From positions 2,233 to 66,232 of the forward strand of contig CALMQS010000124.1 in NCBI GenBank assembly GCA_937871285.1: a DNA stretch of 64,000 nt. The letters are read 5' to 3'. Below the pieces are notes generated by a model. That model had not been told where the DNA came from. It searched no databases and was given only the letters and a program-made list of their open reading frames with translations. Numbering within the stretch: the stretch's first letter is position 1; each line of letters begins with the position of its first letter. The position numbers and the translations under genes are program-made. This stretch comes from an uncultured Sphingobacteriales bacterium (lineage in GTDB: Bacteria > Bacteroidota > Bacteroidia > Chitinophagales > Chitinophagaceae). Shown here one piece after another: positions 1,446-21,867 of this stretch.

Positions 1446-2297
1446 ATGTATAGCAATACAATCGACTTACGTACAAAACAAGATAATATCTTTTTGTCGT
1501 TGTCTTTCCTGCAGGCAGCGATGATTCTTACTGCTGCAATACAAAGCCTGCTGGAGCCATCAGTGTACAAGCTGGAATCCCGCAACTGGCAAATTCAAGC
1601 TATCGGACAAGACCTTATAAACAGCGTATTGGTTGCGCCTGCACTGGTCATATGTACTGTGTGCGTTTTCCGGAACAAGGCAAAAGCTTTTTATATTTGG
1701 GGTGGATTTCATTTGTATCTGTTGTATACATTTATCATCTATGCCTTTAACGTCCATTTCAACAGCTTTTTTTTGTTGTATTGCGGCGTCTTGGGAATCT
1801 CTGTATATTCATTGCTCTGGTATTCCAGCCGCATACTCCAACTCAACTCCCCTACCCTGTTTCGCCCAACGTTTTCATCAAAAATAATTGCAGTTTATTT
1901 TATTATGGTGGGTTCCTTCTTTATGGTGTTGTGGCTTTTTGAAATAGTTCCTGCAATTATAGCGGGAGGCCAACCCGACTCACTGGACAAAACAGCATTA
2001 TTCACGAACCCTGTGCATGTACTGGATATATCTGTTGTTTTGCCATCTTTTATAATAATAGCTATATTATTGTTAAAGGGGCACCGAATCGCTTTCCTAC
2101 TGGTACCTTCATTACTAACCTTCATGCTATTGATGAGTATCACTATTATGTTCCTGACAGTTTTTGCCGGGTACCAAGAACAGCAGCATAACGCGGCCTT
2201 AGCGTCTAACATGGCGTTGTTTTCACTGATATGTTTTTTCCTGTTAAGAAGGCATCTCGGGGAGTTAGTAAAACCACTCTCTACCAACCAGGAATAG
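1446..2297 (+). CDS. Multi-pass membrane hypothetical protein
   Basis: About 7 hydrophobic segments; NPVHVLD motif; start placed at ATG 1446 (A-rich context) rather than the ORF-track start at 1350. Confidence 0.75.
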   Translation: MYSNTIDLRTKQDNIFLSLSFLQAAMILTAAIQSLLEPSVYKLESRNWQIQAIGQDLINSVLVAPALVICTVCVFRNKAKAFYIWGGFHLYLLYTFIIYAFNVHFNSFFLLYCGVLGISVYSLLWYSSRILQLNSPTLFRPTFSSKIIAVYFIMVGSFFMVLWLFEIVPAIIAGGQPDSLDKTALFTNPVHVLDISVVLPSFIIIAILLLKGHRIAFLLVPSLLTFMLLMSITIMFLTVFAGYQEQQHNAALASNMALFSLICFFLLRRHLGELVKPLSTNQE

Positions 2298-2579
2298 CTA
2301 AATCGCTTTTACAACAAAACGATGAGAGAGATCATACTGAAACATTCAGTCTTTAAAGCCTCAGCCGGTACAAGTTCCTGTACCCGCTAAGGATTAGTGT
2401 AAAACCGGATGCATTCTGTGTATCCGGCCTTTGTTTAGTGCTTAGCTTATACTCACTAAGATGTTCACAGTGCAGAAAAGAGTTTTCAATCATTGATAGC
2501 TTAATGAAACCGGTCTGCTTTTCTGACGGAATGTTTTAGAAATATTCCCGGGCATTATCTCTTTACCGGATTGCCTAAG

Positions 2580-2650
2580 AGGTGCTGACCGGATTTGAAC
2601 CGATGTATCGGCTTTTGCAGAGCCGTGCCTAACCACTCGGCCACAGCACC
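2580..2650 (-). tRNA. tRNA-Cys (GCA)
   Basis: Reverse complement folds as GGTGCTG/CAGCACC acceptor, GCC/GGC D stem, CGGCT-CT(GCA)AA-AGCCG anticodon arm, ATCGG-TTCAAAT-CCGGT T arm; U discriminator; CCA not encoded. Confidence 0.97.
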
Positions 2651-2704
2651 ATTTCATAACGCGTTATCATTTTCAAAGGAATATTACCTAAAGTAACTAC
2701 AGGG

Positions 2705-2899
2705 CTATGTTTTTAAAATGGTACGCGGGCGTTCTTTTCGCAAAAAATACGGCAGGAAAGAGGTTATCACAAAAGCCAGAAAACCGGCTATATTTCTGCC
2801 TTTCGGATTACCTGCCACAGCTTTTTTTTCATGCGGCAGCCATGCATAATCTTCTTCCTCCCCGTACCGAAAGCCATCCGTATTCTTTTGCTTTGACAT
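2705..2899 (-). CDS. Possible small membrane protein (64 aa) upstream of tRNA-Cys
   Basis: A-rich start context and one hydrophobic stretch (IAGFLAFVITSFLPYFL); no family recognised. Confidence 0.3.
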   Translation of the reverse strand: MSKQKNTDGFRYGEEEDYAWLPHEKKAVAGNPKGRNIAGFLAFVITSFLPYFLRKERPRTILKT

Positions 2900-2933
2900 T
2901 TTTTGACATTTTTATTGACAACAATACAAAGGC

Positions 2934-2963
2934 AAAGCTATCCTGTAGACACAGGACAGCTTT
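2934..2963 (-). terminator. 13-bp hairpin (terminator/attenuator-like) downstream of the 2972-3061 sORF
   Basis: AAAGCTGTCCTGT-GTCT-ACAGGATAGCTTT on the minus strand, followed by T-rich sequence. Confidence 0.5.
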
Positions 2964-2971
2964 GGTGTACC

Positions 2972-3061
2972 TTATGACTCGATGACATGAGTGGATTCGA
3001 ACCACATACGTGATAAACCACGTCTCTTCCTGTAGTAAAGAGCATGCATTTTAGTAAACAT
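2972..3061 (-). CDS. Candidate leaderless sORF MFTKMHALYYRKRRGLSRMWFESTHVIES (29 aa)
   Basis: ATG lies 4 nt after a TACTTTTG -7 box; overlaps the cloverleaf. Confidence 0.35.
   Translation of the reverse strand: MFTKMHALYYRKRRGLSRMWFESTHVIES
2982..3049 (-). ncRNA. tRNA-like cloverleaf element (non-canonical)
   Basis: GCATG/CATGT closing stem, CTCTT-TACTACAGG-AAGAG D-like arm, ACGTG-GTTTAT-CACGT arm with a 6-nt loop, GTGG-TTCGAAT-CCAC canonical T arm. Confidence 0.4.
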
Positions 3062-3065
3062 GCTC

Positions 3066-3110
3066 CAAAAGTATTTTAATACTATTAGTCTACCAAATTA
3101 ATAGAATAAT
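3066..3110 (-). promoter_or_regulatory. Sigma70-type promoter (-7 TACTTTTG at 3066-3073, -33 TTTG at 3094-3097) with palindromic operator 3084-3110
   Basis: ATTAGTCTAC-CAAATTA-ATAGAATAAT; 20-nt -33/-7 spacer. Confidence 0.7.
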
Positions 3111-3173
3111 AATTTTTTATTGCACATTTCCACGTCCCAACAACTTCATAAAAAATTATTCTTCAAAAATAAA

Positions 3174-3217
3174 ATTAGTCTACTTATTTTGTAGACTAAT
3201 AAAATCTCCTATATTTG
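3174..3217 (+). promoter_or_regulatory. Sigma70-type promoter (-33 TTTG at 3188-3191, -7 TATATTTG at 3210-3217) with perfect palindromic operator 3174-3200
   Basis: ATTAGTCTAC-TTATTTT-GTAGACTAAT; 18-nt spacer, slightly short of consensus. Confidence 0.75.
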
Positions 3218-3221
3218 CAGC

Positions 3222-3272
3222 ATGAATTATCCTTCGCACAGGTTTCGTTGTTGTTGCCGCCTGGCAACATAA
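3222..3272 (+). CDS. Candidate Cys-rich leader peptide MNYPSHRFRCCCRLAT
   Basis: ATG 4 nt after the -7 box; three consecutive Cys codons (TGT TGT TGC); GTTGCC-GCCT-GGCAAC hairpin covers the Cys codons and ORF end. Confidence 0.55.
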   Translation: MNYPSHRFRCCCRLAT

Positions 3273-3358
3273 TCAATTATACACCGCTCCATGCGGAAAT
3301 CATTTTCCTTCCATTTACAAGGTTTTAAATATCACATCATAAAATATAATTCATTGTT

Positions 3359-4264
3359 ATGGGTACCATAAACAACTCCCTGTTCCATTTAGGGGATACA
3401 TTAACAACAGAACAGAAAAACTTTTTCCACAAATTTGGCATATTACAGTTCCGTAATTTTATAGATAAAGCAACGGTGGCCTCCTTTATAGAAGAGATCA
3501 GCAGTGTAGAACAAGAGTTATTAACCGAAGGCATACAAAAGATCAATGGCATACCACTGAAATTTGGAAAGAATACAGACGGAAGGCGCTTTATCCAGCG
3601 TATAGCATTCACCTCCCAGCATAGCAACCGGCTTAGCGTATTTCTTAAAGACAAACGCCTGGCAGCACTGGTTGCATTGCTGTATCCGTATGAAGGAAGG
3701 GTGGGCGAAAACGAAAAAGACGGGCTGGTGCTTAACCACTACATTAATACCCCGGACAGCGAATACAAGCAGCTCGGCTGGCATACAGACAGTCCCCGGG
3801 ATATATTCCTGGGATCGAGGATCATGCCCATGCTGAATGTTGGCCTGCATTTGGACGATTATCCTTTCGAGAAGGGAGGATTGAGAGTACTAACGGGAAC
3901 GCATACCCAAAATTTATTCCGGTTGCTGTTCCGAAAAAAATATTTTGTAGACAATGATCCTGATCCCCGGGAAGTAGGCTTTAATATTGAAGCCGGAGAC
4001 CTCACCGTTCATGATGGCAGGCTATGGCACAGGGTTCAACGCTCTGCATATTCCGGCGATGAAAGCCGCCGCAGGGTAATGTATATCCCGATTGTAACCG
4101 GCGCATACAGGCCTAAACACGCAGACAGCCCAACGCCTTTTTATCACAAGCTGGCCTTACCCAGGCTGGAACGGTACCGCGAGAGCCTCAGGTGGCCCAC
4201 TGTAAAAGAAAAAGGGCTGAAATGGAGCAGACTCGTTTCAGCAAAGCAACCTGAAAAAATATAA
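3359..4264 (+). CDS. Phytanoyl-CoA dioxygenase (PhyH)-family 2OG-Fe(II) oxygenase
   Basis: WHTD (HxD) ... GGLRVL.GTH ... GDLTVHDGRLWH ... RRVMY facial-triad pattern. Confidence 0.85.
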   Translation: MGTINNSLFHLGDTLTTEQKNFFHKFGILQFRNFIDKATVASFIEEISSVEQELLTEGIQKINGIPLKFGKNTDGRRFIQRIAFTSQHSNRLSVFLKDKRLAALVALLYPYEGRVGENEKDGLVLNHYINTPDSEYKQLGWHTDSPRDIFLGSRIMPMLNVGLHLDDYPFEKGGLRVLTGTHTQNLFRLLFRKKYFVDNDPDPREVGFNIEAGDLTVHDGRLWHRVQRSAYSGDESRRRVMYIPIVTGAYRPKHADSPTPFYHKLALPRLERYRESLRWPTVKEKGLKWSRLVSAKQPEKI

Positions 4265-4269
4265 AAGAC

Positions 4270-5046
4270 ATGGCATACGCACTCATCACCGGGGCTGCAA
4301 AGGGCATTGGTAAAGCAATCGCGTCTGAACTGGCATCGAAAGGCTATGATCTGCTGCTTGTTGACCTTGATGCTGCCGGTCTGGCACATACAGCCGCAAC
4401 ATTGGTTTCCGAACGCAAAGTGTTGGTGCATACCCTCACAGCAGACCTCTCTGCGCCTGACACTGCATACAAAATAAAGGAATGGACCGTTGCTTTTGAA
4501 AGCGAACTGCAGGTGCTGGTGAACAACGCGGCATTCGGGTTGAACGGCGCATTTGACAAGCTTTCACTCACCGAACAATTGCATATTATAGATGTTAATG
4601 TTAAGTCGGTAGTAGCGCTTTGCCACCTGTTTATACCGGTGCTCCGGCAGCAAGAGAAGGCGTATATACTTAACATCGGCAGCAATGCAGGTTACCAGCC
4701 TGTACCTTATCTTAACATCTATGCCGCTTCCAAAGCATTTATTATTTCGTTTACACGCAGCCTGCGTTATGAGTTGCGCAGATCCAATGTGCACGTGAGC
4801 TGTGTGAGCCCGGGAAGCACCGACACTGGCTTTGTAGACCGTGCAGGCATGAGCAGCGCGATCAGGAAAACTGCCGAAAGGTACAATATGAGCGCAGCGG
4901 AAGTGGCAAAAATAGCAGTAAAAGCATTGCTCAGTAAAAGAAAGGAACGTATTACAGGGGTGCAAACAAAGTTAGGTGTGTTTCTTTCGTGGCTTGCACC
5001 TAAATCGTGGTCTGAAAAATTTGGCGCTGATATATTCAGCAAATAA
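4270..5046 (+). CDS. Short-chain dehydrogenase/reductase (SDR)
   Basis: TGAAKGIG, LVNNAAFG, catalytic YAASK. Confidence 0.95.
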   Translation: MAYALITGAAKGIGKAIASELASKGYDLLLVDLDAAGLAHTAATLVSERKVLVHTLTADLSAPDTAYKIKEWTVAFESELQVLVNNAAFGLNGAFDKLSLTEQLHIIDVNVKSVVALCHLFIPVLRQQEKAYILNIGSNAGYQPVPYLNIYAASKAFIISFTRSLRYELRRSNVHVSCVSPGSTDTGFVDRAGMSSAIRKTAERYNMSAAEVAKIAVKALLSKRKERITGVQTKLGVFLSWLAPKSWSEKFGADIFSK

Positions 5047-5192
5047 AAACATGTAAAACATTAAGTCCGGGCGCGTTTTTCTTTGCAGTTGGTTTAATAC
5101 GAATTACGGTTATCGCCCGGCACAACTTCCACACGGGTTAAGGAGCCCGCACAGCGCTGGTTTCCTTAATCCGGATATTTTATCAATCTATT

Positions 5193-5795
5193 ATGGTTTA
5201 CAAAAGCATTGTGGCATTACTTTATTTGCTCACGGCGGCTTATCACGGCGGGGATAAGGATTACGTATATGAATCATACTATAACATTTTCAGGGATGGT
5301 AAGATCGTTGGTCATGTACGGTGCAGCAGATCGGAAAAGAATGGAGTAACGGAATATGTTACCGAATCAAAAGTGAAAATATCATTACTTGTAGATATTT
5401 CCATTTACAATAAGATAGAGAGTTCTTTTATTAACGGTATTTTATCTCAGGGCAGTATGGTTCGTAAAATTAACGGAAAGGCAAGGTCGGAATCGCGTAT
5501 CTCCTGGCAAAACGATAAATATATGGTTAGCGGTGCGGACGGCAAAAGCGGCGAATTGCGCTCCAGGATAGAATTCAGCACAGGCTGCCTTATGCACGCA
5601 GAGCCTGACCGCCATACAAAGATCTATTCCGAAAATTTCAGGCAACTGGTAGCCGTTCAACCGGTTGGACCACATAAGTATGCTATCAAACTACCCGATG
5701 GGAAAGATAATTTCTATACTTATAAAGACGGCGTTTGTATAGAAGTAGAAGTACCCACTGCATTTGCAACAGTATATATCAGGCCTGTAAAATAA
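5193..5795 (+). CDS. Secreted beta-rich hypothetical protein (DUF6134-like)
   Basis: Short signal-like N-terminus; YNIFRDGKIVG motif; family recalled from memory. Confidence 0.55.
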   Translation: MVYKSIVALLYLLTAAYHGGDKDYVYESYYNIFRDGKIVGHVRCSRSEKNGVTEYVTESKVKISLLVDISIYNKIESSFINGILSQGSMVRKINGKARSESRISWQNDKYMVSGADGKSGELRSRIEFSTGCLMHAEPDRHTKIYSENFRQLVAVQPVGPHKYAIKLPDGKDNFYTYKDGVCIEVEVPTAFATVYIRPVK

Positions 5796-5937
5796 GCTGA
5801 GTTTTGAATGTACCATCTGCCTACTGCACTTCAACACATAGGTACAATAGGGTCATAGGAAAACAATGGATATATATTTTCTCATTCAAATTGTTCGTCT
5901 GTACGGGTGTCTTTCAATTTGTTCAGCATAGCATAGC

Positions 5938-6789
5938 TCATTTAATATTTCCTGAAAAATCAACAGACTTTCCAATATGAACAGAGCGGCTGTTTACGGA
6001 AACCCTTGGAGCAAAACCTTTGGCTTCTATGACGTATGCAACAAAAGACAGGTTTTCCTTTACATAGCCAGACGGAATGGTGTAAGTAAACGTTTTAGCA
6101 TATACACCGTTTTTTGCGATAGTACCTAATTCATCTCCAAAGTAATTTCCGGTGAGATAGGCCCTGAGCACATGAAAATGCCGGTAATCTTCAATCCATT
6201 TTAAACTTCCGTCAACGAGATCTGCCTGCCTGTAAGGAATATCATTTTCCAGTACTGCAACCGCCAGGCGATAATCGGCGCTCGCTTCTCCCCTATTGGC
6301 AACCTGCACTTCCACCCTAACCGTATTATCTCCCGTAACAGCAGTGCCAAGCGCAATTCCTATCTTAGCCGTTGCTTTTGCCCGCTCTATGAAAGAACCG
6401 GACGTTGCATCAAATTCGCCTACCGTAACCAGGTCATCACGCTGGTCAATGATAACACCGGGATACCCGGTTACACCATAAAAATAGTTTTGAAACTGTT
6501 TATAGCCGCTGAATTCCATAGGATCATTCTCATCCAACCGGCCATGCACACTTATCAGATCAATCCTTCCGGGATATTTTGTTTCAGATGCTGCTGCTAT
6601 AAGGTCAGACACTTTCGGACAGTATACACAATCGAAAGAAACGAACTCCATGATCAGTACATTTTTAGTAAATGATGAAGTGTCGGAACCGCCCTGGTTG
6701 TTATCACCATCCGGGCCGCTTCCTTTTGTACAGGCGTTAATTGCAAGGGCAAAAACACAAAAGGAAAATATTTTAACGATATGCTTCAT
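5938..6789 (-). CDS. Omp28-related outer-membrane lipoprotein with thioredoxin-like CxxC
   Basis: Lipobox INAC; VLIMEFVSFDCVYCP; V.GYP; LENDI...H.HVLRA; start at MKHIV (6789). Confidence 0.85.
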   Translation of the reverse strand: MKHIVKIFSFCVFALAINACTKGSGPDGDNNQGGSDTSSFTKNVLIMEFVSFDCVYCPKVSDLIAAASETKYPGRIDLISVHGRLDENDPMEFSGYKQFQNYFYGVTGYPGVIIDQRDDLVTVGEFDATSGSFIERAKATAKIGIALGTAVTGDNTVRVEVQVANRGEASADYRLAVAVLENDIPYRQADLVDGSLKWIEDYRHFHVLRAYLTGNYFGDELGTIAKNGVYAKTFTYTIPSGYVKENLSFVAYVIEAKGFAPRVSVNSRSVHIGKSVDFSGNIK

Positions 6790-6800
6790 AGTATCAGGAA

Positions 6801-8384
6801 TTAAAATGATGATGTTACAGCAAGGTTTAACCCTGTATACGCAGGCATGTACAGGCAAACTCCTCCGGCACAAATAAGTCCTTCCCGGTTCCTGCCATAA
6901 TTCAGCGCAATTCTTGTACGCGAAAAAGTATAGCTTCCGCCGAGCCTGTAATAATGAACCCCTGTATCGCCGTAATTATACATATCTCCAATAAAACATG
7001 TAAAGGCAGGAGAAGCTGAGAACTCAACGAGTGCTGCGCCCCAATTCTTCAAATAATCCCTGCTCCAGAGATGCTGCAGCTCAAAACGAAAAGACCTTCC
7101 GGGCGCTGATTTCCAGAGCAGGTCACCTGCAGCTACATGAGAAGCATACAACGTATTTTCTTTACCAATAACAACAGGATTAAATACCTGGCCGGAATAG
7201 AACAGGTGTGTGAGCAATGTAGCACTGATCTTTTTCTCTATATCAATATTAATATCCTGGAAGTATTTTGTATTACCAGTGCCGAGAAAATCATACCCGT
7301 GAACAGCATCTCCTTTCAGATTATAATAGGTGGATGCATTGAATGACAACTGCGTTCCATATTTTCCACCTAATAGGCTTCCACTTTTTAAGCGATATTG
7401 AATATCCAGCTGCCCTCCTGTTTCTTCATTGCCCATCGTATTATGCGGATTCAGCATAGCAAGCGAATAGCCATGCTGTTTCGTAAGGGCAGGCAAATAA
7501 TTCAGGTCCCTGCCAACTCCTGCTATTCCGCGTGTAGTGCCAAATTGCATATACTCCAACCGGCGCAGTGATAGCAAACTTCCAAACCCCGTTGTATTAT
7601 AACCTATTTCGAGCAGCAACGCGCTGCCATTTTTATTTTTATTGTTTGAATATACACTGTTATCCTTCGACTTATATGCATACTCTCCCTGAAAACTGAA
7701 TGCTTCAACATCCCAGTTTACATTGAACGAATACGCCTGCACATTAGGATTAACAGGCTCCTGCCCCGCATAACTTACATAACGATTGATAACATTTATT
7801 GCCGCACCGGCAACGGAATGCTCAAGCTTAAACAATGAAGCCAGATCAACAGACAGGCTTGCACCTTTGATATTTGATTCAGCTTTATCCATAAATTCCC
7901 TGGGGCGGCCCAGGATTCCTTTTACATGAAAAAGATCACGAAATGAATAGGCGAGCCTCACTCCTTCTACAGATGTATTAAGACCAATAGCCCTTTCTTC
8001 ATACGCCCTGAAAATAAGCCCGTTGCCAAACTGATCATAAAAGTCACCGGCTGTAACCGCCAGGTTACTATCCTGAAAAGATGCATATTTAAATACCAGC
8101 CCGCTATTCCGTAAGGTGGTTGGCAATCCCTGCAATACCGGCAAATACGCCTCATACTGTAGGCCTGCCCTGAATTTTTTATATTGATAGTCTACCTTAA
8201 AATAATTATTAGATCCGAGCTTATCATCCGGAGCAATAATGCCGGGTTTACTATCATTTAAATAATAAATCGTATTGGTTTCAAAACTCCCCGATAAATT
8301 GCTTTGGGCGTACATAGATTTGGAGATTATCAAAAAGATGATAACATGTAAGCATATACTGATACAGATCCTGTTCCGCTTCAT
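6801..8384 (-). CDS. DUF6029-family outer-membrane beta-barrel protein
   Basis: GSNNYFKVDY...GDFYDQFGNGLIFRAYEER...YGRNREGLICAGGVCLYMPAYTG; terminal Phe. Confidence 0.8.
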   Translation of the reverse strand: MKRNRICISICLHVIIFLIISKSMYAQSNLSGSFETNTIYYLNDSKPGIIAPDDKLGSNNYFKVDYQYKKFRAGLQYEAYLPVLQGLPTTLRNSGLVFKYASFQDSNLAVTAGDFYDQFGNGLIFRAYEERAIGLNTSVEGVRLAYSFRDLFHVKGILGRPREFMDKAESNIKGASLSVDLASLFKLEHSVAGAAINVINRYVSYAGQEPVNPNVQAYSFNVNWDVEAFSFQGEYAYKSKDNSVYSNNKNKNGSALLLEIGYNTTGFGSLLSLRRLEYMQFGTTRGIAGVGRDLNYLPALTKQHGYSLAMLNPHNTMGNEETGGQLDIQYRLKSGSLLGGKYGTQLSFNASTYYNLKGDAVHGYDFLGTGNTKYFQDINIDIEKKISATLLTHLFYSGQVFNPVVIGKENTLYASHVAAGDLLWKSAPGRSFRFELQHLWSRDYLKNWGAALVEFSASPAFTCFIGDMYNYGDTGVHYYRLGGSYTFSRTRIALNYGRNREGLICAGGVCLYMPAYTGLNLAVTSSF

Positions 8385-8867
8385 TTACAGCCCTTTTAAA
8401 ACTTCCAGTACCTTTGATTCACTGCCCGGGGTATATCCAATATGTGAATAAACAATATTTCCTTTAGGGGTAATAATATATAACTGAGGAATGGAATTGA
8501 CATTCAGGGCCCGCTTAAAATCCTGATTTTTGTCTATTAATACGGTGAATGGCCATTCGCGTGCAGCAGCAAACGTACGAACCCTCGACACAGATCTTGC
8601 ATCATCTGTAGAAACCGCAACTATTTTGAAACTTACTTCTTCCTGCCATGTCGTCCATTGATCTCTAAAGGCATTCAACTCTTCGATGCAAGGCTTACAT
8701 ATTGTTGACCAGAATGATATTACCACCGGCACACCGTCATTAAGCAAAGCGTGTGAATTTATGGTTTCGCCTTTCAACGTATTTAATGGCACAGATGGCA
8801 GTTGTGTTTGACCGGAGACAATTGCAACTGACAGATACGCAAAACAAAACAGGAGATATCTTTTCAT
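8385..8867 (-). CDS. TlpA-family thiol-disulfide oxidoreductase
   Basis: VVISFWSTICKPCIEEL (CxxC), cis-Pro IPQ; signal peptide; stop codon abuts the DUF6029 ATG. Confidence 0.93.
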   Translation of the reverse strand: MKRYLLFCFAYLSVAIVSGQTQLPSVPLNTLKGETINSHALLNDGVPVVISFWSTICKPCIEELNAFRDQWTTWQEEVSFKIVAVSTDDARSVSRVRTFAAAREWPFTVLIDKNQDFKRALNVNSIPQLYIITPKGNIVYSHIGYTPGSESKVLEVLKGL

Positions 8868-9030
8868 TTTAAATTATTCTCAACTTATTTATAATCATAT
8901 ACCAGCTATCATCATCCTGCAAAATTGGAACACGACCTACAGCATTTCTCTTTTTTCATTTACATTTATCGAACACAGAAATTATTGAGCATATACATCT
9001 TCCCATATAATTCGTGGCAGATAATGAATC

Positions 9031-9495
9031 CTAGTGCTCATGTTCATGCTCACCGCTGCCATCTCCGGCTTTAACGGTTATATTTTCATCCAGAGCAGCT
9101 ACCTGGCCTTCCTGATCCGTAACTTTAAGATGGAAACTATAGGCCCCGATAGCCTCTCCTTCGGGAATTACAGGGTAATCCTGAAATCCGGGTACTTCTT
9201 TCCTGCCCACATAATCTCCTTCGTATACCTTGCTAAGGCTAAATATTCCATAGCCACTTTCCTGGTATATCTCCAGCTCAATTTTTTTTATTCGCCCGGG
9301 CACCTTGATATTAACTTCAAAATGTCCTTCCTCGCCTAAATAAAAAATGCCATCTTCCTCCGCCTCATGAATTCCCAGGTGAACCACCTCTATTGTTGGA
9401 GCTGCCGGTTTTTCCTTTTCCTTACTGCATGATGAAAATAAAAGCAGCAATGCCCCCGCAAGCAGTAAATTCCATAATGATTTTTTGTTTTGCAT
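9031..9495 (-). CDS. DUF4625-like lipoprotein with C-terminal HEHEH
   Basis: Lipobox FSSC; IP...IGAYSFHLKVTDQEG motif; His-rich tail. Confidence 0.7.
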   Translation of the reverse strand: MQNKKSLWNLLLAGALLLLFSSCSKEKEKPAAPTIEVVHLGIHEAEEDGIFYLGEEGHFEVNIKVPGRIKKIELEIYQESGYGIFSLSKVYEGDYVGRKEVPGFQDYPVIPEGEAIGAYSFHLKVTDQEGQVAALDENITVKAGDGSGEHEHEH

Positions 9496-9571
9496 GTTAA
9501 AATAATTTGGTGGGATAAATCCCGGTTATCAGCCCAATCATTTATGAGCTTTTCATAGGGGGAAAAAAGCG

Positions 9572-9615
9572 AAAAACATCACCTGCCGGGCAGCGCCGGA
9601 ACAGGTGATATTTTT
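9572..9615 (-). terminator. Intrinsic terminator after susD
   Basis: AAAA(C/T)ATCACCTG ... CAGGTGAT(A/G)TTTTT inverted repeat with T tracts on both strands. Confidence 0.75.
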
Positions 9616-9646
9616 GTGCGCTTAAAACGTTGATGCAAAAGCAATA

Positions 9647-11365
9647 TTAGTATCCCGGGTTCTGGGCAATTCCCAAATCGTTGCCCGACAATCCTTTCGG
9701 AATAGGGAAACGATAGAACTTGCCGCTAATATTTTGTGTTTTTGAACGGAGATGCTTATGCACTTTCGCGAAAAACGGGTAATTTGTTTTAACACTTCCC
9801 GCGGTACCATCACTTTCAGGACCAAACTTAGCAGCAATAGATTCTACAGAACTGTAATCATCCTTGTAGTACTCGAATTCCGGTACATCTGTAAGTATGG
9901 TATTAACCAATTTTCTCCAACGTACCAGGTTAGACCAATGTCTTTGCTCAAAATACAGCTCGAGATACCACTCTTTTTCCAGGTGATCCTGTGTAATTGT
10001 ACTGTATTCACTTACCCCCGCTCTGCGCCTTAATTGATTAATTACCTGTGCTGCTTCAGTTGCTTTACCTAATTGAAGCAGTGCTTCGGCTTTGATCAGC
10101 AAAACTTCGGCATAGCGGATTTCAATGCGGTTCATATTATTGGGCTGGGCCGCTTCTGAACCCGGGGCAACATCCGTGAGTTTTGCATTACGGTGCACAA
10201 ACTTGCCAATACGTGGTGAAGTAACCGGGAATATATAGTCATATTCTTTATAGTCCGTTGCTTTTGTTGCAGGTGATGCAACCGGTTCATCCTGGTTATA
10301 CAATTTTGTGAAAAGTGAATAATGCTTACGTTTATCATTATCCGGGAAACGGTTAACTAATGAAACATCAGCCGGGCCGATATGGTTATCCTGATAAAGA
10401 TCAAAACGGAAAGTGAACGGGCAGTGCGTTTGGTGATTGCCCTGTGCATCACCCAGGCCGTCTCCATCATGATGAATGGTGAAAATATGTTCAGGCGATT
10501 TGTTTTCAGCGGGCACACCGAAATTACTTTCAAAATTATCTTCCAGCCTGTAGTTACCGCTATTGATCACTTTATCGGCATACTCAACGGCTTTCTGCAG
10601 TTTGGCTGCGTCCCAGGCAGCGGCTGCGGGGTCTGACTTACCGCCTGCGATGGCAGCCACTTCAGTTTGTGATAGCGGCTTACTTGCCCATGCCAGGTAT
10701 GCTCTTGCCAAAAGCGCATTGGCAGCGCCTTTGCTTGGGTTAGAACGGATCACATCGTATCCCGGCAAGGCAGCTTCAGCTTCTGTAAAATCTTTTACGA
10801 TTTGTGTGTACACTTCATCAATAGACTTACGGGATGTTTGTTCGGCCGAAGACGGAGTTGAAGTTAATATGAGCGGTACCTCACCCCAAAGATTTACAAG
10901 ATAAGCATAACCCTGTGCACGGATGAATTTTGCCCTCGCTCTTGCCAGGTCTATACTGGACTGGCTCAAATTATTACCGGCACTGCTGGAGTCGGCTTTA
11001 CCTATCGTTCTGTTGGCTTCACCTATACTCACATACAGATAATTGAAGATTTTTGTAGGATACCAGTTATTGACATCTGTCTTTAGCTGGCTCACCAATG
11101 GTCCGTCTGCATCATCAGCACCTTCAAAACTGATTGTATGCTCACTGGTAGATTCCAAAAGAAATGAAAACGAAGAGCTCAATCTTTGCCAGGGCGGGAA
11201 AGCAGCATTGGCTGTTGCCAATGCTTCCTGGTCGGTTTTCCAAACTGATTCTCCTGTAATTACGTCCGGAGGATTTCCTCCTGTTGTATCCTTTTTGCAG
11301 GAGTAGCCTGCCAAAGAACCAACTGCAATAGCTGTAATAGCTAACTGTTTAAGGGATTTTGTCAT
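9647..11365 (-). CDS. SusD/RagB-family lipoprotein (Met/Cys-poor)
   Basis: Lipobox GYSC; WGEVPL; RYAEVLLIKAEA; QNPGY end; only 2 Met and 2 Cys in 572 aa. Confidence 0.95.
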   Translation of the reverse strand: MTKSLKQLAITAIAVGSLAGYSCKKDTTGGNPPDVITGESVWKTDQEALATANAAFPPWQRLSSSFSFLLESTSEHTISFEGADDADGPLVSQLKTDVNNWYPTKIFNYLYVSIGEANRTIGKADSSSAGNNLSQSSIDLARARAKFIRAQGYAYLVNLWGEVPLILTSTPSSAEQTSRKSIDEVYTQIVKDFTEAEAALPGYDVIRSNPSKGAANALLARAYLAWASKPLSQTEVAAIAGGKSDPAAAAWDAAKLQKAVEYADKVINSGNYRLEDNFESNFGVPAENKSPEHIFTIHHDGDGLGDAQGNHQTHCPFTFRFDLYQDNHIGPADVSLVNRFPDNDKRKHYSLFTKLYNQDEPVASPATKATDYKEYDYIFPVTSPRIGKFVHRNAKLTDVAPGSEAAQPNNMNRIEIRYAEVLLIKAEALLQLGKATEAAQVINQLRRRAGVSEYSTITQDHLEKEWYLELYFEQRHWSNLVRWRKLVNTILTDVPEFEYYKDDYSSVESIAAKFGPESDGTAGSVKTNYPFFAKVHKHLRSKTQNISGKFYRFPIPKGLSGNDLGIAQNPGY

Positions 11366-11402
11366 ATTTTCTAATATTTAAGCAATTAATAAATGTATTT
11401 TT

Positions 11403-14400
11403 CTAGTATGAAATATTTACACCAAACAAGAACGTGCGGGGCATCGGATAGGTTCCCAGATCAATACCTGTTGCTACTTCCGGGTTGTAGCCCTTATACC
11501 TTGTAAGGGTTACAGGATTTTGCGCAGTGGCAAATAAACGAACCCGCAATGACGGCAGCTTACGGGAAGCTAACCACGCCTTATCAACAGTGTACCCCAG
11601 CGTTATCGTTCTGATCCGGAGAAAGGAAGCATCTTCCACGTACCGGCTATCCAGCTCCGATGAAAAAGGAGCACTGGTAATCCGCGGTACTGTATTAGAA
11701 GGATTGGCCTCTGTCCATGCGTTCAGCAATGCAGATGAAGCATTATACGCATCATTGGGTCTTTCTAAGTAGCGGCGTAACTGGTTGTATACGCTATTGC
11801 CGCTTGTTCCCTGCAACAAAACAAACAAATCAAAACCGTATGCATTTACCGATGAAGAAAAACCATATATCAGATTTGGCTGTTTACTGCCCAAAACCAC
11901 GCGATCGTTTTGGTCAATATGGCCATCCCTGTTCACATCTCTCAATTTAGGATCTCCGGGTTGCGGTATAGTATAGGATGGACTGGTAGGTAATTTAGAA
12001 ACATCCTCTCCCTTTTGAATTATGCCGTCAAATACCTGTCCGTAAAATGAGCCTAAAGGTTCGCCAACACGCAAAATCTCCACTCCCAGTATTCTCTCCG
12101 TCAGGTTATTGTACAGGCGGGTAATCTTATTTGTATTATGGGCAACATTGGCGGCTACGGACCATTGAATACGTTTCTTATCTATAACCAAAGCATTTAC
12201 CGACAGTTCCACGCCCTTGTTTTCAAGATTACCTACGTTAACTAATTGTTCATTACTCTGCCCGAGATTCGGGGGAATGCGTATGAGCAGGTCTGAAGTT
12301 TTTTTATGATACACATCAACGGTAGCAGAAATCCGGTTATTCAGGAAACCGGCATCTACCCCAATATTATACTGGGCTGTTGTTTCCCATTTCAGGTTTT
12401 CATTTCCGTTGTTGCCTACACTATATGCCACATTACCTCCATAATACACTGCTTCCAAAAGCTGCAGATACTCATAATCACCAATTTCCTGGTTACCTAC
12501 CTGGCCTGCGCTCAACCGTAATTTTAAATTACTGAGCTGTTGGAAATCCTTCAGGAAGGATTCTTCATTGATATTCCATGCCAGGCCTAAAGAAGGAAAT
12601 ATTCCCCATTTGTGATTTTTGGCAAACCTGGTGGAGTAATCACTTCTGAAATTGGCCGTCAGATGATACCTGTCTAACAACGAGTAATTTACTCTTCCCA
12701 ATAATGAATGCAGCCTACTCTGTGTTGCCCCGCTAAAGATCGGCCTGCTGCCATATGGCTTACCATCCTGTAAATTATTCACACCCAGGTCTTCGTTTGT
12801 AAAGCTTGAGCTCAGGGTTGTAATAAAGTTGTTCCTGGTATGCTGAAAAGTATATCCTGCCAGCGCATCAAAAGTGTGCTTATCGTTTATCCGTTTTGCA
12901 TACGACAAAGTAAATTCAGACAAAAGGATCTCGGTCTTTTTATTACCAATACCTCCCACACCCTGCGGTTCAAGTCCGAGAGCCGTATAGGAAGGTGAAA
13001 AATAATGCTGGGTGGTATACCCTAAATTACTGCCAACACTAACTTTTGCAGTAATGCCGCCCTCCGATTTATACTGGGCATACACGTTTCCCAATATAGA
13101 GGAGTATTCGGTTTGCGCCGTACTTTTTAAAAGGTCGGCTATTGGATTTGCGGTAGTATCTCCTTCTCTTAAATACGCGTATTCAAAAGGATTATTGAGG
13201 TTATATCCGCCGCTGGCATTATAAAATGGCAATACCGGCGGCATATACAAAGCGTACGTCAGCGAATTGGTAATACCTGCAGAATAGGGAGAGCTGTTAT
13301 AATTTACAGCTTCAAAAGTAGTGAGCGTATTTTGGGTGCTTTTACTACCTGTGAGGTTTACACCTATTTTCAACCCGGGCAATAAAGTACGATCATAATT
13401 TGCCCGGCCAACAAATCGCTTGAAGCCGGAGTTAAGCACTACACCCTCCTGGTTTAAATAATTACCGGAAAGAAAATACTGCGATTTTTCATCACCGCCG
13501 CTAATGGAAAGCGCATGGTTCTGCGTGGTACCTGTTTGCAACACTGCCTTTTGCCAGTTGTATCCCTGGCCCAGTTGTGCAATCTCCTGGTCGCTATAGC
13601 CGGGTTTGTTAAGGAAATAATCTTTCTGCAAGCGGGCCCATTGTGTTGCATTGAGCAGATCCAGTTGTTTGGCTGAATTGGCTGCTCCAAAAGAATATTG
13701 ATAGTCAATTAAACTTCCGCCTTTCTTACCCTTCCTGGTAGTGATCAGTATAACGCCATTGGATCCGCGTGAACCATAAATAGCCGTTGCCGACACATCC
13801 TTCAGCACCTCGATGGATTCTATATCGGAAGGATTGAGAAAGGAAAGCGGATTAAGCTCACCTTCAATTCCTCCTAAACCAACTTTTGTTGAAGCATTAT
13901 CACTGAAATACAGGAATCCGTCAATTACAAATAAAGGATTATTACTCGCATTTACAGAGTTCCCTCCCCTGATGCGAATGGTTGACGGTGCACCAGGCTG
14001 TCCGGATCCCTGTGTTACGTTTAAGCCCGCTACGGCTCCTCCAAGCAAACCATCAATGGTAGGAGATACATTATATTCTAAAATTTTCTTCGAAACTGAG
14101 GTCACAGCTCCAGTAAGGTCTTTACGCCGCTGTGTACCATATCCTACAACAACCACTTCATTCAATTCATTGATATGCTGAGATAAAGAAATGGTAACAG
14201 GATTATTTACCGAGCGTAATGCTTCTTCACCTGGTTTATAACCAACAGAAGTTATTACCAGCGTTACAGGGAAAGCCTTTACTGACTGAAGTGAAAAAAA
14301 ACCTTTTGTATCACTTAAAACCTTGTTATCGGTTCCTTTTTCACTTATAACTGCACTAATTACCGGTTCATTCGTTTTGCTGTCTATAATATAACCTTCA

Positions 14401-14495
14401 ACAATATGGTTTTGTGCCTGCAGCACTGAAAAACAAAGAAAGAGACCTGTAAATAACCATATTTTTTTTATACACACCCTAAAAAGAAAACTCAT
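11403..14495 (-). CDS. SusC/RagA-family TonB-dependent transporter (Met/Cys-poor)
   Basis: VVVVGYGTQ; LNPSDIESIEVLKDVSATAIYGSRGSNGVILITT; LKWETT; 3 Met, and both Cys in the signal peptide. Confidence 0.97.
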   Translation of the reverse strand: MSFLFRVCIKKIWLFTGLFLCFSVLQAQNHIVEGYIIDSKTNEPVISAVISEKGTDNKVLSDTKGFFSLQSVKAFPVTLVITSVGYKPGEEALRSVNNPVTISLSQHINELNEVVVVGYGTQRRKDLTGAVTSVSKKILEYNVSPTIDGLLGGAVAGLNVTQGSGQPGAPSTIRIRGGNSVNASNNPLFVIDGFLYFSDNASTKVGLGGIEGELNPLSFLNPSDIESIEVLKDVSATAIYGSRGSNGVILITTRKGKKGGSLIDYQYSFGAANSAKQLDLLNATQWARLQKDYFLNKPGYSDQEIAQLGQGYNWQKAVLQTGTTQNHALSISGGDEKSQYFLSGNYLNQEGVVLNSGFKRFVGRANYDRTLLPGLKIGVNLTGSKSTQNTLTTFEAVNYNSSPYSAGITNSLTYALYMPPVLPFYNASGGYNLNNPFEYAYLREGDTTANPIADLLKSTAQTEYSSILGNVYAQYKSEGGITAKVSVGSNLGYTTQHYFSPSYTALGLEPQGVGGIGNKKTEILLSEFTLSYAKRINDKHTFDALAGYTFQHTRNNFITTLSSSFTNEDLGVNNLQDGKPYGSRPIFSGATQSRLHSLLGRVNYSLLDRYHLTANFRSDYSTRFAKNHKWGIFPSLGLAWNINEESFLKDFQQLSNLKLRLSAGQVGNQEIGDYEYLQLLEAVYYGGNVAYSVGNNGNENLKWETTAQYNIGVDAGFLNNRISATVDVYHKKTSDLLIRIPPNLGQSNEQLVNVGNLENKGVELSVNALVIDKKRIQWSVAANVAHNTNKITRLYNNLTERILGVEILRVGEPLGSFYGQVFDGIIQKGEDVSKLPTSPSYTIPQPGDPKLRDVNRDGHIDQNDRVVLGSKQPNLIYGFSSSVNAYGFDLFVLLQGTSGNSVYNQLRRYLERPNDAYNASSALLNAWTEANPSNTVPRITSAPFSSELDSRYVEDASFLRIRTITLGYTVDKAWLASRKLPSLRVRLFATAQNPVTLTRYKGYNPEVATGIDLGTYPMPRTFLFGVNISY

Positions 14496-14631
14496 ATTGC
14501 AGTAGTTAAAAATTTTAATTCAATGTTTTATCAGTGGAACATATTTATCATCAGGCGAAAAAAATCTTTTGAAAAACGGATTGCTATCATTAAATAAACA
14601 GGCGGTAACAACAATTCATTCTACAAATTCT

Positions 14632-14658
14632 ATTAGTCCACAAAATTAGTAGACTATA
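14632..14658. promoter_or_regulatory. Palindromic operator copy in the susC leader
   Basis: ATTAGTCCAC-AAAATTA-GTAGACTATA; no matching -7 box found next to it. Confidence 0.65.
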
Positions 14659-14727
14659 ATTAAATACCAAAATTTTTTTTAACCTCATTACAATAAATTT
14701 TCTGAATCTTTACATAAACCATAACCC

Positions 14728-14805
14728 TTAAGGATTGTCGCCGAAGTAATGAAAATAACTTAAAACATGGTTAGTATTACTACAACGAATTGTAGTAATA
14801 AACAT
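14728..14805 (-). CDS. Candidate leader peptide MFITTIRCSNTNHVLSYFHYFGDNP
   Basis: TIRCS motif resembles TLRCS at 21422-21469; an 11-bp TTCG-loop hairpin (14775-14800) is centred on the Ile-Arg codons and its 3' arm carries the Cys codon. Confidence 0.4.
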   Translation of the reverse strand: MFITTIRCSNTNHVLSYFHYFGDNP

Positions 14806-14863
14806 GATTCAAACGTGATAAAAATCAATTAAACATCATCACTTACGGGGATAAAAGGCATAG

Positions 14864-14938
14864 CTATAAAGCTAAAGTGGACATCAGCCACAAAGGACAT
14901 CGTGACATGGAATAGTCAATATGGTTACTACGCTTCAT
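14864..14938 (-). CDS. Candidate leader peptide MKRSNHIDYSMSRCPLWLMSTLAL
   Basis: ATG 9 nt after the -7 box; contains RC and 3 Met. Confidence 0.35.
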   Translation of the reverse strand: MKRSNHIDYSMSRCPLWLMSTLAL

Positions 14939-14947
14939 AATTAAATG

Positions 14948-14992
14948 CAAAACTATATTATTTATATTAGTCTACAAATATTATAGACTAAT
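14948..14992 (-). promoter_or_regulatory. Sigma70-type promoter (-7 TAGTTTTG at 14948-14955, -33 TTTG at 14975-14978) with operator 14966-14992, driving susCD
   Basis: ATTAGTCTAC-AAATATT-ATAGACTAAT; 19-nt spacer. Confidence 0.78.
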
Positions 14993-15133
14993 TTATTTTT
15001 ATTTTTTTTAAAAGGATACAGGCGTCATTTAAACCAGGAATGTCCAAACAATTGCTTTCCATCGCCTGCATTAGCTATCATACCTGAATATCCGATGACA
15101 GGGCTAAACCAGTATAACAATTAATCCGTTGGT

Positions 15134-17749: not shown

Positions 17750-17857
17750 AACTTAACGGATCTATTCTTATCATTAATAAAGTGGCTTACCGTGGGTGCA
17801 TTTCAAATTGTTGCCGGTTGGTGTAGACACCAACCGGGGCGGTCCACAGGAAGCAAG

Positions 17858-19078
17858 TCAAAGCGGTTTTATTATCTTATAAAAAACCTTTTCCTCATCA
17901 TCCGGTTGTTTTTTACCGGAGAAAGCCACTATAAACTGGTTGCCAAACGGCTTTATTACAGGAAAAGACGCGTAACCGGTGCTGTCTGTTAAATACGTTG
18001 TTAGCATTTTTTTCCCGCACGGAGACCTGATTTCGAGGCCTATGCGATTGCCTTTTGATGCGCTTTCATCCCATACGATCAATTGTTCACCTGCTTTGGC
18101 AACTGCTAACTGGGGGTGTTTGGCGGAAGGCCTGCTACTCACAGCATCTCTTTTTGAAAACGTTTTACCATTGTCTTTTGAAGCTGCATAAAAAACACCA
18201 CTGCCATTTCCCGAAGTATACCAAACAAAAGAAAGACCTTCGGGTGTTTGTGCTATGGCAGGCCCAGTGTGCGGGCAGCCATTGATCACCCAATTATCAG
18301 GACTGATACGTTCAGGCGGCGCGAAGGTATTTCCGTTATCAAAAGAAACGGCATGAACCATATCTCTTATTGAATCATTAATTATTTTCCTGTAAACGGC
18401 ATGCAGGTTTCCCTGCTGATCAGCAAACAGGTCTGTACGGCAGCAGGGGCAAACGGAAATGTCAACAGGCTTTTCATTTTCCAGTTCGCTATTGCTGTCA
18501 AAAGTTGCAAAGTACAGGGTTGAGCCTTCCTTGTCTGTGCTCTTCCGGCTATCGAGCCAGATTACTCCTACCGTGTTATCCTTTAATATTTCTATATCAA
18601 AATAGCGTTGATCAACACTGTTTGTATCCTTACTTAATGTTTTGCGGGTTGTCCAGTTCTTACCCCCGTCTAATGACCAGCTATAATAAACAAGTCCCGA
18701 ATAAGGATTTTCAGGATTGGGATTTGACGCTCCCCAGGCGGCCAAAATTTTTCCGTTTGGAGCTATGATTACCCTGGGTAAATTTTCACCGTGCGGATAT
18801 GCATTATCACTGCCGGGTACCGTTATTGCTGAGCCGAAGTGAGTTCCATTTTCAGATACCGCATAACACAATACAGATGCCGTATCTGAGATATCACGCA
18901 ACCAGCTTATAACCGTTATTCCATCCTTTCCTTTAAACAGGTTGGGGCAGGATCCTGAAAAAGCGCTATCCTTCGCAATTCCCCATTCGTCTGTTGCAAC
19001 CTGCTTCAACTTTTGCTCCCTGGAGTTACAGGATAAGAGAAAAATGAGCAGAAGGCTATACACCGTAAATTTCATCAT
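17858..19078 (-). CDS. BNR/Asp-box (sialidase-like) beta-propeller lipoprotein
   Basis: Lipobox LLSC; Asp boxes SLDGGKNW, SFDNGNTF, SKDNGKTF; VCPCC and GCPHTGP motifs; ATGA overlap with the upstream TBDR. Confidence 0.82.
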   Translation of the reverse strand: MMKFTVYSLLLIFLLSCNSREQKLKQVATDEWGIAKDSAFSGSCPNLFKGKDGITVISWLRDISDTASVLCYAVSENGTHFGSAITVPGSDNAYPHGENLPRVIIAPNGKILAAWGASNPNPENPYSGLVYYSWSLDGGKNWTTRKTLSKDTNSVDQRYFDIEILKDNTVGVIWLDSRKSTDKEGSTLYFATFDSNSELENEKPVDISVCPCCRTDLFADQQGNLHAVYRKIINDSIRDMVHAVSFDNGNTFAPPERISPDNWVINGCPHTGPAIAQTPEGLSFVWYTSGNGSGVFYAASKDNGKTFSKRDAVSSRPSAKHPQLAVAKAGEQLIVWDESASKGNRIGLEIRSPCGKKMLTTYLTDSTGYASFPVIKPFGNQFIVAFSGKKQPDDEEKVFYKIIKPL

Positions 19079-21504: not shown

Positions 21505-21549
21505 CAAAACTAATATCAATTTATTAGTCTACCAAATAAGTAGACTAAT
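21505..21549 (-). promoter_or_regulatory. Sigma70-type promoter (-7 TAGTTTTG at 21505-21512, -33 TTTG at 21533-21536) with perfect operator 21523-21549
   Basis: ATTAGTCTAC-CAAATAA-GTAGACTAAT; 20-nt spacer. Confidence 0.8.
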
Positions 21550-21678: not shown

Positions 21679-21711
21679 CTGCAGTTCTTTACACCGTATG
21701 ATTTACGGAAT

Positions 21712-21829
21712 ACTTATCAAGAAAGGTGGAGGGTAATGGCCCTGCGAAGCCTTGACAACCTCCTTTTATGCCGCATGGAATAAAAGGGAAGGTGCCAATT
21801 CCATCACGCCAACGGCGTGGGAGATAAGC
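21712..21829 (+). ncRNA. SAM-I (S-box) riboswitch
   Basis: CTTATCAAGAAAGGTGGAGGG...GGCCC...GAAGCC...CAACC...GGTGCCAATTCC...GAGATAAG; P1 CTTATC/GATAAG; P4 CACGCC/GGCGTG. Confidence 0.95.
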
Positions 21830-21867
21830 CAGATTCATAGCTCCGCAATATGTGTAACACAATATTT

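Follow-up and report, generated by a model that had tools for sequence, protein, structure and literature searches.

A candidate cysteine-sensing leader open reading frame upstream of a PhyH-SDR operon in Chitinophagaceae

Leader open reading frames (ORFs) built around cysteine codons have been documented only in mycobacteria and, by sequence comparison alone, in alphaproteobacteria. The mycobacterial polycysteine leaderless short ORFs (Ms5788A, Rv2334A; the “Cys ribulon”) act through a stalled ribosome that opens a duplex hiding the downstream ribosome-binding site, as was shown experimentally (Canestrari et al. 2020, bioRxiv 10.1101/834739), whereas for the ORF upstream of alphaproteobacterial cysS, the uORFC-8-2 motif, sensing of Cys-tRNA by stalling was proposed from comparative sequence data (PMC8632094). 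Here we describe a short ORF, MNYPSHRFRCCCRLAT, in DNA of an uncultured Sphingobacteriales bacterium assigned to the Chitinophagaceae (contig CALMQS010000124.1, positions 2,233 to 66,232; these 64,000 nucleotides are called the window), which precedes a gene pair for a PhyH-family dioxygenase and a short-chain dehydrogenase/reductase (SDR) and which is probably a cis-regulatory leader that senses Cys-tRNA. Our literature search returned no report of a Cys-codon leader ORF in Bacteroidota, in agreement with an earlier note on this DNA, whose author knew of no such description in the phylum. The concept itself is known; the novelty lies in the phylum, in the DNA operator on which the ORF is layered, in the kind of target gene and in a differing output mechanism.

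Classical transcription attenuators are those of the trp, his and leu operons. Like them, the locus has a run of codons for a single amino acid in a short leader ORF that overlaps RNA structure upstream of an operon; unlike them, it shows no terminator/antiterminator pair that we could find, and the operon is not biosynthetic for the amino acid that would be sensed. Comparison with relatives supports the attenuator reading of the earlier note, with the caveats that the hairpin over the conserved run of Cys codons is no terminator and that the downstream genes are not biosynthetic. Leader-peptide attenuators have been inferred for amino-acid operons of another member of the phylum, Flavobacterium psychrophilum (PMC9723704). 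With the mycobacterial ORFs the present one shares its place as an unannotated first cistron, a predicted 5′ AUG or GUG, at least two consecutive Cys codons that are often C-terminal, its recurrence at several operons per organism, and little other conservation of the peptide. However, there is no sequence homology and we found no occluding duplex; Bacteroidota use no Shine-Dalgarno (SD) sequence, so that the anti-SD mechanism cannot apply and the output must differ. The module moreover stands under a DNA operator, whereas the mycobacterial promoter is reported to be constitutive, and it precedes uptake systems and oxidoreductases instead of targets of the cysK/cysE type. As in uORFC-8-2, tandem Cys codons lie inside the first stem of the leader and vary between UGC and UGU, but that motif ends in a U-run intrinsic terminator and controls cysteinyl-tRNA synthetase, while here there is no terminator, the ORF is predicted to be leaderless, and the targets are others.

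Conservation of the cysteine codons upstream of PhyH genes

The leader in the window, which is the first cistron and ends 86 nt 5′ of the PhyH gene on the same strand, reads ATG AAT TAT CCT TCG CAC AGG TTT CGT TGT TGT TGC CGC CTG GCA ACA TAA, and its ATG at 3222 is separated from the promoter box TATATTTG by the four nucleotides CAGC. In F. psychrophilum the σA box TAnnTTTG is found at −12 to −5 and 5.5% of mRNAs are leaderless (PMC9723704); with the box in this position, +1 is predicted at A3222 and the mRNA would be leaderless. Leaderless initiation, which we infer from this promoter geometry and from one weak RNA contig boundary described below, would thus place the ribosome directly on the start codon. 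The −33 element TTTG (3188-3191) falls inside the spacer and right half of a palindromic operator, so that a bound repressor would cover the promoter. Inspection of the sequence confirmed what the earlier note had reported here, namely an ATG 4 nt after the box and close to the expected +1, three consecutive Cys codons, and a GTTGCC-GCCT-GGCAAC hairpin that overlaps these codons and the end of the ORF. This hairpin (hairpin 1) extends over Cys codons 2-3, the Arg codon after them and the final sense codons. Runs of TGYTGYTGY are not rare by themselves, with 18 in the window versus 4.45 expected from shuffles, most of them in genes and in other frames; the significance of the run therefore rests on its conservation in relatives.

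To assess this conservation we used two samples, in which loci carry L numbers as labels (L001, L004 and so on). The first consisted of 56 PhyH loci from reference genomes, found with the PhyH protein. Short ORFs containing 3-6 successive Cys codons lie within 250 nt upstream in 15 of these 56 orthologues, from Agriterribacter, Terrimonas, Chitinophaga, Larkinella and further Chitinophagaceae, compared with a single match (L050) among 251 other long ORFs of the same DNA that served as a control. That control match was discarded, being an out-of-frame ORF inside an SDR gene. The second sample, 12 more homologues from a protein search that were chosen blind to their upstream DNA, carried the Cys-run ORF without exception (12/12). 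Across both samples, leaders were found in Agriterribacter, Terrimonas, Chitinophaga, Pseudobacter, Larkinella and Siphonobacter, which belong to two orders.

The peptides themselves have hardly anything else in common. A relative at 93% identity encodes MNHPPYRFRCCCRMAT; other leaders end in ...GACCCCKC (C. niabensis), ...SCCCRMCC (C. skermanii), ...SCYCC (C. niastensis), ...WWCCS (Pseudobacter), ...SSLCCK (Siphonobacter) or ...ICRCCCR (Larkinella harenae). The Cys runs comprise 2-6 codons near the C terminus, the ORFs range in length from 4 (MCCC, L150) to 48 codons, the N termini are unrelated, and only the Cys run is shared, with swaps between TGT and TGC. The expectation, raised in the earlier note, that orthologous leaders would keep their Cys codons while synonymous positions vary was thus borne out in the comparison across genera. 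In most leaders, among them all those from a high-GC group introduced below, the codon just before the Cys run encodes Arg, and often so does the codon just after it.

The frame and the start codon are conserved as well. All 23 Bacteroidota leaders have, in the Cys frame, both a start at most 45 codons before the run and a stop at most 8 codons past it, a combination found in 0 and 1 of 28 leaders in the other two frames. An ATG or GTG follows the −7 box by exactly 4 nt in 16 of 16 close relatives (Agriterribacter/Terrimonas type), the same spacing as in the window, and the distance from start to Cys run in these relatives is 24, 27 or 30 nt, that is, it changes in steps of three. A chance ORF was rejected on the grounds of the Cys-frame test and the enrichment at PhyH genes. 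Since the frame, the start position, indels in multiples of three and the run are conserved and the rest of the peptide is not, the pattern has the marks of an ORF that is translated and selected for its Cys codons, not for its product. The versions in Chitinophaga and Larkinella appear to have a 5′ leader, unlike what is predicted for the Terrimonas type.

For one relative, RNA data bear on the start. A search for RNA from the window, which derives from an activated-sludge metagenome, came back empty, and L004 alone yielded metatranscriptome contigs. In this relative, Terrimonas sp. NS-102, one contig spans without a break the stretch from position 2862 through the leader to the PhyH start; the match sets in 4 nt from the predicted +1 (2858), and none of the RNA contigs maps upstream. 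The contig also has 173 unplaced bases at its 5′ end, which makes it weak support for the start position; these extra bases could be a chimera, a 5′-end artifact or a strain variant. No metatranscriptome contigs were found for L054.

Among the loci lacking a Cys ORF, PhyH-SDR loci of the Spirosoma type (L021-L042, L053) share a promoter, AAAATTGTAAATTTNGTAGATTTG, about 120 nt upstream of PhyH. Their leader of about 95 nt, in which a CGGT pairs with an ACCG beside the AUG and which has no Rfam match, could represent another type of regulatory RNA serving this operon.

Table 1. Coordinates of the leader, its control elements and associated features in the window
Feature	Position	Strand	Remarks
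Distal operator-like site TAGTCTACCAAATTAATAGAATA	3086-3108		2 mismatches; 90 bp upstream of main operator; pattern search; direct repeat
Main operator ATTAGTCTAC-N7-GTAGACTAAT	3174-3200	strand-neutral	perfect palindrome
Sigma-A −7 box TATATTTG	3210-3217	+	Bacteroidota consensus TAnnTTTG, −12 to −5
Leader short ORF MNYPSHRFRCCCRLAT	3222-3272	+	16 codons plus stop; predicted start at +1 (leaderless)
Cys codons TGT TGT TGC	3249-3257	+	three in a row; proposed sensor
Hairpin 1, GUUGCC-GCCU-GGCAAC	3253-3268	+	6 bp; 5′ arm is Cys codons 2-3 plus first base of Arg codon
Untranslated spacer	3273-3358	+	86 nt; C 21%, G 8%; no U-tract terminator
Hairpin 2 region past stop codon	3284-3308	+	CCGC-UCCAU-GCGG (3284-3296) and/or GGAAA-UCAU-UUUCC (3295-3308)
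PhyH-family Fe(II)/2-oxoglutarate dioxygenase	3359-4264	+	301 aa; no Cys, 4 Met
Short-chain dehydrogenase/reductase (SDR)	4270-5046	+	always paired with PhyH gene
DUF6134 protein	5193-5795	+	operon gene 3 in Agriterribacter/Terrimonas-type loci
Second leader ORF MNCCYRLFI	14619-14590	−	ATG AAT TGT TGT TAC CGC CTG TTT ATT TAA; start 4 nt after AGAATTTG
Operator copy	14634-14656		1 mismatch; directly upstream of second leader
Operator copy	21525-21547		between TonB-receptor/BNR/TonB-receptor operon (minus) and SAM-I riboswitch (plus)
SAM-I riboswitch	21711-21830	+	
Cystathionine gamma-lyase/synthase-like gene	21929-23158	+	after SAM-I riboswitch

RNA structure around the cysteine codons

Hairpin 1, whose 5′ arm is formed by the Cys codons, is present in 16 of 16 close relatives, and consensus folding of 10 and of 14 leaders recovered this element only. 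Its positions pair in 98% of cells, with one compensatory change from C-G to U-A (L001, L178), a result also obtained in 49 of 500 shuffles. In Chitinophaga and Larkinella hairpin 1 is missing and the Cys ORF is still there. Hairpin 1 is therefore conserved among close relatives, yet it is not a terminator.

Most relatives have a second hairpin 4-11 nt past the stop codon that differs in sequence and does not align, with stems such as CCGG, GGGG/CCCC, GGGA/UCCC, GGUAUA/UAUACC and GGGAA/UUCC; in one subgroup, compensatory changes from G-C to A-U and from G-C to U-A are seen. In some relatives the Cys codons could also pair with the loop of hairpin 2 or with PhyH codons 2-3, for which there is one possible compensatory change. 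An AU-rich pairing of the PhyH start region is found in the window only and is not conserved among 10 leaders. The spacers before PhyH measure 68-170 nt in related leaders and are on average 26% C and 13% G, which makes them rich in C and poor in G; the comparison is weak, since the leaders are related by descent and some controls overlap coding sequence. Altogether, neither a terminator scan nor consensus folding nor an occlusion model revealed a structure that would couple stalling to PhyH expression. Searches against Rfam returned no leader family either: positions 2000-6500 of the window, at E values up to 1, gave only the tRNA and a subthreshold chance match on the strand opposite to it, and 13 related loci at gathering thresholds gave no match to the leader, only tRNAs.

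A shared operator and its sulfur context

The operator over the PhyH promoter recurs in the neighborhood. A pattern search for TAGTCTAC-N7-GTAGACTA gave five sites in the window versus 0.09 expected, and the main operator is conserved in PhyH orthologues. One of the copies is accompanied by a second leader ORF, which heads an operon encoding SusC, SusD, DUF4625, TlpA-like, DUF6029 and Omp28 proteins. This second leader is evidently an abridged version of the PhyH leader and looks like a deletion derivative in which, in addition, TGC has become TAC. Another operator copy, at 14968-14990 (region 14770-14990, minus strand), is followed by its own TAGTTTTG box, by a 24-codon ORF, MKRSNHIDYSMSRCPLWLMSTLAL, and by a 9-bp hairpin, TTACTACAA-TTCG-TTGTAGTAA; a small RNA might be transcribed from this unit, upstream of the SusC leader.

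Cys-run ORFs likewise occur more than once per genome, with two in the window and three in the Larkinella locus L055. The order in L055 is operator, short ORF (...CCC), tRNA-Cys, short ORF (MTLVERRLKA..CCCCCR) and PhyH-SDR, and another short ORF in Larkinella (MKRICTAF...SSSRCCCC) stands before a SusC-like gene. More Cys ORFs were seen at L078, L150 (MCCC), L151 and L163, those of L151 and L163 at other genes of the regulon. A metagenome scan for the perfect operator yielded 119 loci. In Bacteroidota-like DNA the operator precedes genes for TonB receptors, a 370-aa lipoprotein family, PhyH, FA_hydroxylase and DinB_2, and also for TlpA-like proteins, DUF2490, ceramidase-like proteins and DUF4395. 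Some PhyH genes have the operator without the Cys ORF, which makes the Cys ORF an optional second layer. A literature search on the operator sequence returned only unrelated primer and microRNA matches.

As a separate observation, tRNA-Cys genes adjoin the module in two lineages. The window has a tRNA-Cys(GCA) gene at 2579-2650 on the minus strand, about 570 nt upstream of the leader, and in two Larkinella genomes a tRNA-Cys gene (L055, 2643-2714; L014, 2632-2719) lies between two Cys-run ORFs on the PhyH strand, the L014 copy having a 16-nt insertion (88 nt). It seems unlikely that this adjacency arose by chance in both lineages. The window region 2933-2964 / 2991-3005 further holds a 14-bp hairpin, CAAAGCTATCCTGT/ACAGGACAGCTTTG, and on the minus strand a T-arm-like GTGGTTCGAATCCAC, where ARAGORN calls no tRNA; the latter element may be a tRNA remnant or the relic of an attachment site.

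Nine high-GC loci (L081, L082, L088, L092, L108, L126, L130, L161, L167) carry the identical operator directly after a gene for an Rrf2 regulator, with cysD/cysN/cysH divergent from the Rrf2 gene in all contigs that extend far enough. Downstream of the operator come a short ORF (M..TP..RCCC..., 34-42 codons) and then a TonB receptor gene. Eight nucleotides before the Cys run, an anti-SD sequence CUCCUC pairs with the receptor SD sequence GAGGAG (−54 to −73 kcal/mol), and L092 has the compensatory pair UUCCUC/GAGGAA; these loci hence share the anti-SD/SD design of mycobacteria, with one compensatory change. The Rrf2 protein has clustered Cys residues. In Bacillus and Staphylococcus, cysteine metabolism is under a master repressor of the Rrf2 family, CymR (PMC2869319). 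The high-GC loci resemble this system in the link of an Rrf2 regulator to sulfur and cysteine genes (divergent cysDNH), whereas in the window no Rrf2 gene was found and operator binding is putative. To our knowledge, the CymR operator sequence is unrelated to the one described here, and we know of no CymR regulon that includes Cys-codon leader ORFs. Literature searches on Rrf2 with sulfur starvation and TonB in flavobacteria gave nothing useful. Through the operator, an Rrf2-type repressor probably acts on the regulon.

The amino acid composition of the regulated proteins fits such a context. Operator-linked proteins of the window (3359-21369) contain 0.77% internal Met versus 2.22% in other window proteins, and Cys and Met combined are depleted as well (P = 7e-4). 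The counts are 2 Cys and 3 Met in 1030 aa for SusC (11403-14495) and 2 and 2 in 572 aa for SusD, compared with 15-28 Met in the other TonB receptors of the window. A PhyH gene that follows a Cys leader tends to encode a more sulfur-poor protein than an orthologue without one, in a comparison that is confounded by phylogeny. Taken together, the cysDNH adjacency, the sulfur-poor proteins, a sulfatase gene, which adjoins the PhyH operon in L182/L183, and the SAM riboswitch and cystathionine enzyme as neighbors point to sulfur limitation as the physiological signal of the regulon.

The function of the operon itself is less readily read from its proteins: a PDB sequence search with PhyH gave only a weak MysH match, and NCBIfam has no specific family for it. 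The context of the PhyH-SDR-DUF6134 genes points to sulfur scavenging and not to cysteine biosynthesis. In relatives, the neighbors of the PhyH operon (L179, L184, L185 upstream, minus strand; L182/L183 1-984; L178 1-1165) encode FA_hydroxylase, a sulfatase and a TonB receptor, with FA_hydroxylase divergent from the PhyH operon and, in L184, under its own operator. With ceramidase-like and DinB_2 members in the regulon and FA_hydroxylase and sulfatase as neighbors, it is tempting to speculate that organosulfur compounds or sulfonolipids might be scavenged.

Proposed mechanism and competing explanations

The earlier note had suggested a cysteine-sensing attenuator layered on top of the operator, a notion that gains support from the ORF in the Cys frame, its fixed start, the conservation of the Cys run alone and the operator shared across the regulon. 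In the mechanism that we consider likely, transcription from the TATATTTG promoter, under control of the palindromic operator, would start at the A of the ATG, and ribosomes would consequently load directly on the 5′ end. As long as Cys-tRNA(Cys) is plentiful, the ORF would be read through and the ribosome would leave at the UAA; once it is scarce, ribosomes would stall on the three Cys codons, and a stalled ribosome would hold hairpin 1 open from a position immediately 5′ of the stop codon and the C-rich spacer. Such stalling would raise expression of PhyH-SDR-DUF6134. The operon would belong to a sulfur-limitation regulon made up of TonB-dependent/SusCD uptake systems and oxidoreductases, all poor in Cys and Met, and the short ORF would be a second, ribosome-based input that reports charged tRNA(Cys) on top of Rrf2-type operator control. 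What the sequences show directly are the features themselves and their conservation, the frame of the ORF, the place of the operon in the operator regulon and the sulfur-poor composition of the proteins. That the ORF is translated, that initiation is leaderless, that ribosomes stall, which way expression is regulated and which repressor acts in Bacteroidota are elements that we infer.

As to the output, our confidence in any particular mechanism is low. We would guess that stalling relieves decay or premature termination in the spacer, the latter perhaps through Rho, and we favor this because the Cys run always lies near the stop codon and is followed by a C-rich spacer. In the E. coli tna operon, a ribosome stalled near the stop codon of tnaC blocks Rho. 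The leaders described here are comparable, by analogy only, in that the proposed stall site lies a few codons from the stop and a C-rich, G-poor spacer precedes the first structural gene; unlike the ligand-bound arrest peptide of tnaC, however, stalling would here stem from a lack of charged tRNA. Going further, and with appreciable doubt on our side, one might conceive of a “cysteine ribulon” nested in an Rrf2-type sulfur-starvation regulon that is common to Bacteroidota and the high-GC, SD-using group. Leaderless Cys-run ORFs of Bacteroidota would then switch on SusC/D, PhyH-SDR and, in Larkinella, possibly a tRNA-Cys gene, and the coupling would be neither a terminator nor an anti-SD duplex, with masking of a Rho loading site and 5′-end protection as candidates.

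A number of points weigh against a cysteine-sensing leader. The transcription start, the translation of the leader and its response to cysteine are all predictions from sequence, and the tie of PhyH, SDR and DUF6134 to cysteine or sulfur is contextual. A terminator scan of 3222-3359 (plus strand) found no intrinsic terminator, hairpins 1 and 2 being without an adjacent U tract. When 10 leaders were folded free, with a ribosome on the Cys codons or with a ribosome on the stop codon, there was no consistent occlusion of the PhyH start and its accessibility was unchanged. Hairpin 1 hardly varies and so offers little covariation, and any change in the length of the run automatically preserves the frame, (TGT)n being a trinucleotide repeat. 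The start is GTG in 8 of the first 10 close relatives, some of which also have an internal in-frame ATG, and efficient leaderless use of a GTG start in Bacteroidota is an assumption. The Cys ORF is absent from many PhyH-SDR loci (Spirosoma, some paralogues), and neither the window nor the Bacteroidota loci sampled yielded an Rrf2 gene.

Other explanations were weighed as well. The ORF could be translated and its Cys run could sense something other than cysteine supply, for instance how much tRNA-Cys there is or how it is modified, or else a thiol, redox or metal stress that affects tRNA charging or the nascent peptide. The tRNA-Cys(GCA) genes beside the module in two lineages (window, Larkinella) fit this idea, as do the Fe-S clusters that Rrf2 regulators often carry, the clustered Cys residues of the high-GC Rrf2 protein, and the TlpA-like thiol oxidoreductases and DinB_2 proteins in the regulon. 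Sulfur supply is nevertheless favored by the cysDNH adjacency, the sulfur-poor proteins, the sulfatase and the SAM riboswitch neighborhood, and the mycobacterial precedent responds to cysteine (10.1101/834739), so we regard a different signal as unlikely. Somewhat less probable still is that the conserved element is an RNA or DNA motif, be it the UGUUGUUGCC hairpin or a sequence bound by some protein or small RNA, with an incidental, untranslated ORF. The near invariance of hairpin 1 in 16 close relatives would be expected of such a motif, several other leaders pair the U/G-rich Cys run with a downstream ACAAC or GCAAC, and a change from T to C within the run is synonymous in the Leu frame too. 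Yet starts and stops are conserved in the Cys frame only, the start is fixed at the predicted +1 with exchange of ATG and GTG, the Cys ORF persists in Chitinophaga and Larkinella, where hairpin 1 is absent, and there is no match to an Rfam family.

We accord the same low probability as to this motif to a functional Cys-rich micropeptide, either metal- or redox-active itself or a precursor that is modified by PhyH and SDR. It is true that the ORF is linked to an Fe/2-oxoglutarate dioxygenase and a reductase and that the Cys run lies near the C terminus, often flanked by Arg; but conservation of the peptide is confined to the Cys run, with lengths of 4-48 codons, many PhyH-SDR pairs have no such ORF, similar ORFs precede unrelated genes (SusC-type receptors, tRNA-Cys, a CarboxypepD_reg protein), and the operon has none of the recognition-domain, peptidase or export genes typical of peptide maturation. 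Least credible, and in our view highly improbable, is a constitutive upstream ORF that loads ribosomes or stabilizes the 5′ end, or a chance ORF, in either case without sensing. Leader ORFs have been proposed to raise downstream translation by reinitiation (PMC4833913), and no switchable structure was found in the Bacteroidota leaders; spacers of 68-170 nt are, however, long for reinitiation, and both the conservation of the Cys run alone and its recurrence at several regulon operons and in the high-GC group would be left unexplained. Given these considerations, we retain a leader that senses Cys-tRNA as the likely reading.

If this reading is true, it would offer a first point of entry to the control of sulfur starvation in Chitinophagales and Cytophagales, groups abundant in soil and activated sludge, and would attach a sulfur-scavenging label to widespread but uncharacterized genes, those for PhyH-SDR-DUF6134, DUF6029, the 370-aa lipoprotein family and SusC/D pairs. 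The leaders would also constitute a natural test of how ribosome stalling can be passed downstream without an SD sequence or a terminator, and the combination of operator and Cys ORF would be a design reused across very different rules of translation initiation.

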